This document shows positions 27,504 through 28,994 of a DNA stretch of 64,000 bases, one piece after another; position 1 is the first letter of the stretch, and every line of letters begins with the position of its first letter. The translations under genes were made by a program, and so were the position numbers. The notes beneath the pieces are model-generated. The model searched no databases. It saw nothing but the letters and a program-made list of their open reading frames with translations, and was not told where the DNA came from. Location of the stretch: positions 20,473-84,472 of the forward strand of contig CAYWJO010000010.1 of NCBI GenBank assembly GCA_964458565.1, read 5' to 3'. The stretch is from an uncultured archaeon (GTDB lineage: Archaea > Asgardarchaeota > Thorarchaeia > Thorarchaeales > Thorarchaeaceae).

Positions 27504-27942
27504 CAGCCACTCCCTCCTTTACCTCGAGACCTCGATCATTATTTCCAATAACTCCCTCATTAATCAGTAAATCCAAAAAGTGCCGTGCGCGCTCAATATC
27601 AATTCCAGCATCGGCACATTCGACAAGTACTATTTCATAGGCAATTGGACGTCCTCGATTTATTTCCGAAAGACTTTGCACGATATCTATGACCCTTCTT
27701 CTTACGCCACGAGCGCGAGACTTTTGGGGGGATTTCTCAAACTCGCTTTGATTCACCAGGTCACGAATATACTCCCGGGCCTCCACTGAAGTCACAGCAT
27801 AAATCATACCAGGTCCGTGGATTACAAGAGCTCCACACAGTTCGCAAGATGATGTTTCACTTTCTCGTTCTACGCGAGAATGACCAATATTCCCACAAAC
27901 ACTGCATGTATAGACACGATACATACCCCGAGTGCCACTCAC
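27496..27942 (-). CDS. Zn-ribbon plus winged-helix protein (DUF1922/DUF5817-like architecture)
   Basis: CSVC...CELC; C-terminal wHTH (GIDIERARHFLDLLINEGVI). Confidence 0.75.
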   Translation of the reverse strand: MSGTRGMYRVYTCSVCGNIGHSRVERESETSSCELCGALVIHGPGMIYAVTSVEAREYIRDLVNQSEFEKSPQKSRARGVRRRVIDIVQSLSEINRGRPIAYEIVLVECADAGIDIERARHFLDLLINEGVIGNNDRGLEVKEGVADG

Positions 27943-28994
27943 GCTGTTACCTCCGCTTCAACAACTTCTTCTTCATCATCTGGGCGTTGAAGGTCAGTGC
28001 TGAGACCTATACTCTCGAGATACTCAATAACATCCGGTTCGATTTTCTTCCGTTCTTTTTCATCATTGTAAAAACCACCCCATCCAATACTCAAACCCAC
28101 TTCGAAGTCAGGTAGCCCAGCATGATCCTTTAGCCGATATCTTCTCTTGTTACCCTTTCCAGGGGCTGCTTGAAACCTATAGTCACTTGCATGAGAAACA
28201 ACATGCCCTCCCACAGGTGCATTAGGCTGAGCAAAGAGACCAGGTTTTGAGATTGCTTGATTTGTATACAGGAAGATAACATCTGTTGCAGTACCGACCC
28301 GCCTCATTAAGTTCATCAGGGCATTGATCTTTTGTTGACGGATTCCAAGATTGTATAGCCCAATGTATTCAGCTCTGAAGAATCCAGTTAACGAATCTAC
28401 TACTACTACCTTAACATTGTCCTCAACACAAATCTTGGGAATCCTTTCAAAAAGCTGAGTGAGATGATTTGTTGTAACAGGTGAAGCAATCCTGATATTA
28501 GCCATTTGAACATCAACATCCATTCCCCATCTCTTGATATTTGCACGAAGCGTTCTTGGTTTGAGTGACTTTTCACTGTCTAACCATAATACACGTCCTT
28601 CAAGTCCCCCCTCTTCGAGGGGTAACAGTGCTCGAACTGCAAGATAAGCGCACATCTGTGTCTTTCCACCAGCAGCCTTCCCGTAAAACTCGATTAACGA
28701 ACCAGGTTCAAAACCACCTTGAAGTGATTGATCAAAAGCATCAATCCCGGTCTTCAATCGTGATTTGGAGTCGATCTCCTTCTCAATATCAATTGCGGAC
28801 CTGAAATCAAACATCCCAAGCATTTCACGAGCGGCACGAATTATCTTCTTGCAAGTTCCTTCACCAATTTTAGTTCGTTCCTGAAGGTCATCTGCGTTCT
28901 GAACTGAAAGTAGTTCAGCAGTAGTAACAAATGCAGCCTGCAGTTGTTTTGCCACAGTTGGACCAATACCTGGAACCTCAGTTAATTCTGTCAC
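27939..28994 (-). CDS. radA: Full-length, divergent RadA/Rad51-family recombinase
   Basis: HhH (VPGIGPTVA), FRSA (FxxA polymerisation motif), GKAAGGKTQ, LPLEEGGL, VVVDSL, FRAEY..RQQK, TNQ, GGHVVSHAS. Confidence 0.88.
   Translation of the reverse strand: MTELTEVPGIGPTVAKQLQAAFVTTAELLSVQNADDLQERTKIGEGTCKKIIRAAREMLGMFDFRSAIDIEKEIDSKSRLKTGIDAFDQSLQGGFEPGSLIEFYGKAAGGKTQMCAYLAVRALLPLEEGGLEGRVLWLDSEKSLKPRTLRANIKRWGMDVDVQMANIRIASPVTTNHLTQLFERIPKICVEDNVKVVVVDSLTGFFRAEYIGLYNLGIRQQKINALMNLMRRVGTATDVIFLYTNQAISKPGLFAQPNAPVGGHVVSHASDYRFQAAPGKGNKRRYRLKDHAGLPDFEVGLSIGWGGFYNDEKERKKIEPDVIEYLESIGLSTDLQRPDDEEEVVEAEVTA

Follow-up and report, generated by a model that had tools for sequence, protein, structure and literature searches.

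Rad51 and DMC1 descend from archaeal RadA, and DMC1 keeps the arginine of loop L1 that corresponds to R235 of human RAD51. Between protomers R235 forms a salt bridge with D274, which Rad51 proteins keep and Dmc1 has lost; the L1 arginine itself has been described as conserved both in Rad51 and across most archaeal RadA proteins (bioRxiv 10.1101/2025.02.19.639135). For the Asgard archaea additional RadA clades have been published (PMC12722695; bioRxiv 10.1101/2025.02.19.639135), including a second clade in Heimdall-, Njord-, Gerd- and possibly Lokiarchaeia (Matsuo et al. 2025, PMC12722695). Thorarchaeia go unmentioned in the main text of PMC12722695, although its sampling table lists Thor genomes. 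Here we analysed a stretch of 64,000 nucleotides from a member of the Thorarchaeales (contig CAYWJO010000010.1 of assembly GCA_964458565.1), which we call the window. An earlier reading of its letters, the sequence-only reading, had noticed a divergent RadA at 27939-28994 and had proposed that it is a context-specific recombinase working beside a housekeeping RadA. Our results firmly support that this gene, RadA2, is a second, lineage-specific and selectively maintained RadA paralog beside the housekeeping RadA.

RadA2 is an open reading frame (ORF) at 27939-28994 on the minus strand, as are all features of the gene and of its cluster given below in window positions. It starts with GTG and yields a product of 351 aa, which we identified from its translation, Pfam, NCBIfam and AlphaFold2 as a divergent full-length RadA/Rad51-type recombinase paralog. 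The ORF is a genuine gene, well beyond chance, as its homologs fill more than 100 clusters with identities of 47-91%. The N-terminal helix-hairpin-helix (HhH) domain occupies residues 2-57 (28824-28991; Pfam HHH_5, E 4e-9, profile positions 2-57 of 57) and is helical in the AlphaFold2 model, with helices within residues 12-58. The Rad51 core extends over residues 79-307 (Pfam Rad51, E 2e-49). The sequence-only reading had named the HhH domain and an FxxA motif as retained, and had quoted three deviating motifs. All of these were confirmed: the FxxA motif is FRSA at residues 64-67, and the deviating motifs are GKAAGGKT at residues 105-112, DSEKSLKP at 139-146 and EYIGLYNL at 209-216.

The divergence can also be measured. 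RadA2 failed both curated RadA equivalogs, with 248.5 bits on NF003301 (cut-off 259) and 224.1 bits on TIGR02236 (cut-off 361.15). On the RAD51 and DMC1 models it reached 172-176 bits against cut-offs of 448-478 (DMC1 model TIGR02238: 176.3 against 447.7), and on the RadB model TIGR02237 only 62.9 bits against 172.4, with the full N-domain present. The top sequence matches among solved structures were crenarchaeal and euryarchaeal RadA (193 and 192 bits), and human RAD51 came next (153 bits). From the features of a full-length RadA/Rad51/DMC1 protein we found the HhH domain, the RecA-fold ATPase core and FxxA. The L1 arginine (RAD51 R235) and the Pro/Val-Asp of L2 are missing, though both loops are present.

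We then counted conservation across 98 core members of the RadA2 family, using 28 canonical Asgard RadAs as the reference and taking equivalences to human RAD51 from its alignment with RadA2. The polymerisation motif FRSA (28794-28805) aligns with F86-A89 of human RAD51. F64 is kept in 96/98 members and position 67 is Gly in 90/98 (FxxG) and Ala in 8. For the Walker A motif GKAAGGKT (28659-28682) G105, G110 and K111 are invariant, T112 occurs in 96/98, and the canonical Phe at position 107 is replaced by Ala in 89/98. D139 and E141 of D139-S-E141 (28572-28580), the Asp and Glu of the canonical DTE motif, are invariant in all 98 members. Close to this site Y137 has become Trp (W137) and R145 has become Lys, and E147 and R148 of canonical RadA are lost. 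Walker B (VVVVDS, residues 196-201) and loop L1 (residues 205-222) together cover 28329-28409; D200, R207, R219 and Q220 are invariant, and E209 and Y210 are invariant or nearly so.

The changes in the two loops concern the contact between protomers. L213 lies at the position of human RAD51 R235 and is Leu or Ile in 97/98 family members, compared to Arg in 25/28 canonical Asgard RadAs. In loop L2 (residues 245-264, 28203-28262) P251-G252 align with V273-D274 of human RAD51. Position 251 is Ile in 80/98 and Pro in 15/98 members and is Pro in 28/28 canonical RadAs, and position 252 is Ser, Gly or Thr (Gly in 20/98) and Asp in 23/28 canonical RadAs. RadA2 itself carries Pro-Gly; most of its relatives carry Ile-Ser. 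Both partners of the Rad51 inter-protomer salt bridge, the L1 Arg and the L2 Asp, are thus replaced in the family. The remainder of L2 is well kept, with N245, Q246, the GGH motif and H268 invariant or nearly so. The statement that L1 and L2 are retained therefore held for the presence of the loops but not for these two residues. We also found a family signature which is not in canonical RadA, GWGGFY (residues 304-309, 28068-28085), with G304, G306 and G307 invariant and W305 in 96/98, and a second new invariant motif, SDYRF.

The acidic C-terminal extension, also claimed from the letters, is real and comprises ~42 residues beyond the end of the core near residue 309. It consists of an extra helix (residues 312-328, 28011-28061) and a disordered acidic tail (residues 337-351, 27942-27986). 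In terms of the predicted local distance difference test (pLDDT) the helix reached about 96 and the tail stayed below 50. The sequence pattern of the helix is conserved in the family, and canonical RadA has none. Across the family a conserved segment of ~25 residues follows GWGGFY and is succeeded by a variable tail of acidic or mixed charge. The median length after GWGG is 54 residues; canonical RadA ends ~8 residues past the equivalent point. The AlphaFold2 model, computed from a 68-sequence alignment, had a pLDDT of 91 and a predicted template modelling (TM) score of 0.89. Compared by Foldseek to the RAD51 protomers of presynaptic and D-loop filaments it gave target TM-scores of 0.92-0.93 with a root-mean-square deviation of 1.8-2.1 Å over ~310 columns.

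The source genome (3.73 Mb, 93 contigs, 93% complete) was searched for a canonical radA and contains one, on contig C57, so that RadA2 is not the sole full-length RadA of this organism. The canonical protein has 349 aa, carries the motifs GSFRSGKT, DTEGTFRP and EYTGRGTL, and scored 459.8 bits on TIGR02236 (above the cut-off) and 473 bits on NF003301. RadA2 is 35% identical to it. The genome also encodes four shorter RecA-core proteins of RadB-like or KaiC-like type, two of them inside the window, and one of these two is known only by weak AAA-type matches. Canonical RadA was also present in the five relatives from the window's own GTDB family (f1) and the one sister-family genome that we checked with the Rad51 profile. 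Most other RadA2 carriers showed a second RadA match of roughly 190 bits.

A search of 5.8 billion proteins returned ~108 clusters of RadA2 homologs at 47-91% identity, nearly all labelled Thorarchaeota (one carrier is labelled Candidatus Thorarchaeota archaeon). Below this family the identity drops sharply to 39%, where the canonical RadAs start. Among 400 Asgard genomes the matches of more than 300 bits were confined to f1. A sister-family genome (G311) holds a relative at 249 bits, and all other Asgard lineages remained at or below about 230 bits. The clade is thus restricted to one Thorarchaeota order. In two genomes TGA stops were flagged inside the RadA2 matches (G387:C137 and G389:C9). 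They probably lie at the match ends, since ORF extraction for G389 gave an intact frame of 344 aa. An exhaustive search of representatives further identified deeper RadA2 relatives at 240-290 bits, which we call group B. All of these proteins are under the curated RadA cut-offs, and they have lost several catalytic and DNA-binding residues (E141, R207, R219 and Q220).

We studied the phylogeny with a main tree of 102 rows (LG+C20, quick search). Its rows are RadA-like genes of the window's genome and of 25 other Asgard genomes, metagenomic representatives and RadB-like outgroups. Supports are values of the Shimodaira-Hasegawa-like approximate likelihood ratio test (SH-aLRT) from quick searches. 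RadA2, group B and the sister-family protein formed one clade with a support of 99. For the canonical RadAs of these genomes a separate clade was obtained, also with a support of 99, which is nested in the canonical Asgard RadA group. A subset tree of 51 rows gave the same picture, and across both trees the RadA2 clade was supported with 98-99 and did not group with housekeeping Asgard RadA. The approximately unbiased test on the 51-row subset did not reject a topology in which the RadA2 clade is joined with the canonical RadAs of Thorarchaeota (p 0.134, log-likelihood difference 24.7). The duplication may therefore have been Thor-specific and followed by accelerated evolution, or it may be older.

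In both trees the RadA2 clade did not join other Asgard paralog clades, except that one paralog of family f16 was linked to it with weak resolution. Ten representatives with Rad51-like offsets were tried as candidates for eukaryotic Rad51/DMC1; all of them proved to be archaeal RadA, and for this reason the trees hold no eukaryotic Rad51 or DMC1. Many other Asgard genomes have 2-7 RadA-like genes each, which agrees with the additional RadA clades already published (PMC12722695; bioRxiv 10.1101/2025.02.19.639135). Four of the genomes (G128, G250, G067 and G055) gave 5-7 matches to the Rad51 profile, and some paralog clades are common to several families. The diversity of Asgard RadA paralogs far exceeds two clades. 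Many RadA representatives among P0142-P0270 have a length of 500-1391 aa and match in two or three stretches, a pattern that would fit intein-containing RadA genes.

RadA2 is the third gene of a 15-gene cluster which runs from 30168 down to 14532, entirely on the minus strand. The gene order is u240, u176, RadA2, zn148, u204, XPD2, u198, u133, HerA-like, Hel308-like, u559, RadB-like 2, m321, RadB-like 1 and FEN-like. The whole run has the same order and strand in 11/11 f1 genomes which belong to different genera and are covered on both sides; m321 was undetected in one locus (L137) and hence found in 10/11, and u133 was detected in 5/11. The part from u240 to XPD2 is constant in order and strand in 12 f1 genomes covered on both sides of RadA2, with u176 undetected in L056 and u240 in L052 (each found in 11/12). 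A thirteenth f1 locus ends past zn148. In the sister family the block RadA2-zn148-u204-XPD2 is kept. Neighbouring genes overlap at 11/14 junctions, and the remaining three are gaps of 2-6 nt. The overlaps were computed from first-start-codon calls, and overlaps at N-termini are therefore upper bounds. RadA2 is translationally coupled to both neighbours, with overlaps between its start and the u176 stop and between its stop and the zn148 start. Collinear in every carrier examined, the cluster lends strong support to the idea of a context-specific recombinase.

The cluster is not found in all members of the family. Counting the window's own genome, 40 f1 genomes reach a completeness of 90% or more, and RadA2 was found in 31 of these. 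In two cases its apparent absence is due to a contig break, and in seven of the near-complete genomes neither RadA2 nor the HerA-like gene is present (G323, G340, G345, G346, G370, G385 and G391). In most genomes these two genes are either both present or both absent. Carriers and non-carriers share genera, and the seven genomes without RadA2 keep canonical RadA. One genome, G319 (L145, G319:C1:82000-101999, a single contig), retains the cluster genes between the FEN-like gene and u204, both included, with an N-terminally truncated zn148, and no RadA2, u176 or u240 was found in the next 4 kb. The flanking genes differ between genera. We found no tRNA gene, CRISPR array or anomaly in GC content or composition near the cluster, and the flank genes scanned with Pfam (10871-14523 and 32935-37983) serve metabolism or transport and include no integrase. 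Just upstream of the cluster (30402-32753, minus strand) lies a eukaryote-like signature protein of 783 aa, an FG-GAP/BBS2-like beta-propeller fused to a C-terminal Ras/Rab-type GTPase (Pfam Ras, E 4e-47). It is not linked to the cluster in other genomes.

The genes around RadA2 are in part orphans. The first cluster gene, u240 (29446-30168, 240 aa), and the following u176 (28994-29524, 176 aa) had no match in Pfam, NCBIfam or PADLOC, and for u240 there was no Protein Atlas lead either. The gene zn148 (27496-27942) encodes a CxxC...CxxC zinc ribbon and a C-terminal domain which looks like a winged helix, as judged by eye. Its residues C13, C16, C33 and C36 are invariant in 15 orthologs, and it directly follows RadA2 in 14/14 genomes sampled, the sister family included. 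A prediction of the complex of RadA2 and zn148 scored 0.00, which is evidence neither way. The best conserved accessory protein is u204 (26889-27503, 204 aa), for which we found no family match and no Protein Atlas lead; its 165 homologs are all in Thorarchaeota-type metagenome-assembled genomes and none of them is named.

Three cluster genes are divergent paralogs of proteins for which the same genome has a better-scoring copy elsewhere. XPD2 (24936-26885) belongs to the XPD/Rad3 helicase family (Pfam DEAD_2, Helicase_C_2, HBB) and scored 170 bits on the rad3 model (cut-off 247). A better-scoring XPD, 25% identical, is located on contig C25. The Hel308-like superfamily 2 helicase (19542-21752) matched NF002654 with 370 bits (cut-off 887) in its N-terminal half only, compared to 856 bits over the full length for the canonical Hel308-type gene on contig C5. 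The last cluster gene encodes a FEN1/XPG-like nuclease (14532-15521; Pfam XPG_I, XPG_N) with 120 bits on fen_arch (cut-off 352), and canonical FEN1 on contig C46 reached 436 bits. The contig C25 XPD (L132, G000:C25:16000-30000, 2684-8927) is flanked by genes for a type IA topoisomerase and a RadB-like protein, so that this genome contains two pairings of an XPD-family helicase with a RecA-fold gene. A group B gene, P0128 (L150, SDBT01057269.1, 2285-5717), follows a FEN-like gene, a 207-aa orphan and an ERCC4-type nuclease. The FEN-like gene of this locus is 50% identical to that of the cluster, and the locus is a shorter, different arrangement of related parts.

The largest protein of the cluster is the 777-aa HerA/VirB4/TrwB-like product of 21749-24082. 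Sequence searches of PDB, Pfam and NCBIfam found no family for it, and it was identified by fold search alone (AlphaFold2 and Foldseek). Residues 255-700 were modelled with a pLDDT of 81 and matched HerA (4d2i, E 5e-11), VirB4 (4ag5, TMt 0.66-0.68) and TrwB. The protein would be anchored in the membrane by an N-terminal transmembrane segment (residues 43-83), and its P-loop position reads GGxxxxR in 13/13 orthologs, with no lysine. Hydrophobic segments were also seen in three further cluster proteins. These are u198 (24343-24939), a small membrane-anchored protein with a single segment at residues 28-56; u559 (17876-19555), an orphan with no family match and a central hydrophobic hairpin (segments at ~203-255); and m321 (16215-17180), a membrane protein of no known family with several transmembrane segments between residues 32 and 115. 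The positions of u198 and u559 are conserved. The small orphan ORF u133 (24075-24476) has an uncertain start and as called overlaps u198 by 134 nt; weak tblastn matches were seen at the same place in the 5/11 f1 genomes.

Two RadB-like proteins complete the cluster, both in conserved positions. RadB-like protein 1 (15524-16240) matched Pfam Rad51 with E 3e-9, and its Walker A motif appears degenerate by eye. RadB-like/KaiC-like ATPase 2 (17153-17869) has a Walker A motif and weak matches to AAA_25 and AAA_16. Both genes are within four genes of the Hel308-like helicase. This proximity resembles the situation in humans, where HELQ associates with RAD51 paralogs.

Compared to the housekeeping RadA of Saccharolobus solfataricus (2bke) and Pyrococcus furiosus (1pzn), to which it is 32-35% identical in the Foldseek alignments, RadA2 has the same HhH domain, FxxA linker, RecA core, Walker A and B motifs, loops L1 and L2 and predicted fold. 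It differs in the Leu/Ile of L1, the changed Pro-Asp of L2, the FxxG of most family members, the motifs W137, SDYRF and GWGGFY and the added helix and acidic tail. In addition it is an accessory gene which is encoded in a 15-gene cluster and not alone. RadB, aRadC and the eukaryotic Rad51 paralogs are likewise diverged RecA-fold paralogs beside a main recombinase. RadB and aRadC have no HhH N-domain, however, and this class of paralogs often has no functional L1 and L2, whereas RadA2 keeps all three. The additional full-length RadA paralogs of the second Asgard clade are likewise placed away from the main RadA of their own genomes (PMC12722695).

The comparison to DMC1 was raised by the sequence-only reading as an analogy, not necessarily an orthology, and this caution was right given the RAD51 and DMC1 model scores and a clade in one Thorarchaeota order. 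DMC1 is likewise a second recombinase beside a general one, and the Pro-Gly of RadA2 at the positions of Val273-Asp274 is the DMC1-type state, with the L1-L2 salt bridge lost (bioRxiv 10.1101/2025.02.19.639135). But RadA2 is not an ortholog, most family members carry Ile-Ser, and the L1 arginine itself is lost. As the clade is unrelated to the eukaryotic duplication and Pro-Gly is limited to RadA2 and its near kin and is not family-wide, we regard the comparison as a loose analogy only.

We consider it reasonably probable that RadA2 is a lineage-specific second recombinase of Thorarchaeota which belongs to an optional, membrane-associated and co-translated 15-gene recombination module. Motif conservation and fold support the view that RadA2 would still be an ATP-dependent DNA-pairing protein, and the synteny strongly suggests that it acts as the recombinase in a dedicated module which is optional and membrane-associated. 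Most likely it binds ATP and single-stranded DNA, polymerises via the FxxA/G motif and performs or supports strand pairing. Its DNA-contacting loops would be rewired, with the L1 arginine and L2 aspartate that link protomers exchanged for hydrophobic or small residues, and the extra helix and acidic tail could regulate DNA binding or recruit partners. The module would bring its own helicases (XPD2 and Hel308-like), a flap nuclease, two RadB-like mediators, a membrane-anchored HerA/VirB4-like scaffold and the orphans, and as a whole may act as a parallel membrane-associated recombination toolkit. Filament formation and strand exchange by RadA2, indirectly supported by the match to RAD51 filament protomers, are inferred, as are any mismatch tolerance and a physical association of the cluster proteins. 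The module could serve to process transferred DNA, act in defence or provide a special route of repair.

A bolder and rather unlikely version of this proposal would see in the cluster a new membrane-coupled machine for DNA exchange and recombination in Asgard archaea. The HerA/VirB4-like scaffold would receive or hand over DNA, XPD2, the Hel308-like helicase and the FEN-like nuclease would process it, and RadA2 would pair it with the chromosome. In the Ced DNA import system of Crenarchaeota and in bacterial conjugation and competence a membrane-anchored protein of the HerA/VirB4 fold and small membrane proteins are also linked to homologous recombination. We found no sequence relationship to these systems, at which no dedicated test was aimed, and the HerA-like protein of the cluster differs in its missing P-loop lysine. 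We know of no Ced or competence system with its own Rad51-type recombinase plus XPD, Hel308 and FEN paralogs.

Several observations count against a dedicated recombination module with RadA2 as its recombinase. The cluster is dispensable, given the near-complete f1 genomes without it, and the locus of G319 suggests that the other genes may not strictly need RadA2. The loss of the L1 arginine could impair the capture of duplex DNA instead of retuning it, and most family members have FxxG instead of FxxA. Furthermore, DNA pumping by the HerA-like protein cannot be assumed because its P-loop lysine is missing.

Three other explanations have to be weighed. Instead of exchanging strands, RadA2 could mediate or regulate the filament of the housekeeping RadA, as Rad51 paralogs, RadB and aRadC do, by docking via FxxA/G and altering assembly, stability or capping. 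The strong divergence with scores below the curated cut-offs, the lost L1 arginine and L2 aspartate and the changes at the canonical-invariant R145, E147 and R148 would agree with such a role. The extra helix and acidic tail suggest a surface for protein interaction, and the residues lost in group B indicate that the lineage does drift toward non-catalytic forms. On the other hand RadA2 keeps the HhH domain and both loops, unlike RadB and aRadC, and all ATPase residues are strictly conserved over the 98 sequences. The RadB model score is 63 bits against a cut-off of 172, and the two RadB-like proteins of the cluster could already act as mediators. We therefore judge a mediator role doubtful. 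RadA2 might instead be the housekeeping RadA of the organism, fast-evolving but orthologous. The full-length RadA domain content would allow for this, but a canonical RadA with twice the model score exists in the same genome, in the five f1 relatives and in the sister-family genome checked, and the seven near-complete f1 genomes without RadA2 keep the canonical gene. Together with the separate clade these findings refute the orthologous origin, to which we assign a negligible probability.

The cluster might also serve defence or belong to a mobile element such as an apparatus for conjugation-like transfer, with RadA2 as a DNA sensor or effector or as the element's own recombinase. It is patchy within genera, with 7/40 near-complete genomes lacking both marker genes, and its flanks vary between genera. 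Among the best fold matches of the 777-aa protein are HerA proteins from anti-phage complexes as well as VirB4 and the coupling protein TrwB, and XPD2 was the only one of six submitted cluster proteins to match PADLOC (DinG-type model, 265 bits). A type IV CRISPR reading of the cluster was dropped, as there was the DinG-type match only and no CRISPR repeats. RadA2, zn148, u204, u176 and u240 match no PADLOC model, the remaining nine cluster proteins not having been submitted. Nor do the surroundings of the cluster speak for a mobile element, with no CRISPR array, tRNA gene or compositional anomaly and no integrase among the Pfam-scanned flank genes. Over 11 genera of a single family the gene order does not vary, and the proteins have diverged in parallel (about 35-60% identity), which would fit vertical descent with losses better than frequent transfer. 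A defence or mobile-element origin thus appears improbable to us.

If RadA2 is indeed the second recombinase of its own module, it is an independent Asgard case of a general recombinase accompanied by a second, loop-rewired one which is tied to its own helicases, nuclease, mediators and membrane proteins. The clade is not the Rad51/DMC1 duplication. Whether Asgard archaea already share out recombination labour between paralogs bears on the origin of meiotic recombination. The RadA2 family also offers a natural test case for the L1-L2 contacts, which current work ties to the fidelity and outcome of recombination, and the cluster points to an undescribed multi-protein DNA-processing system with at least seven orphan protein families.

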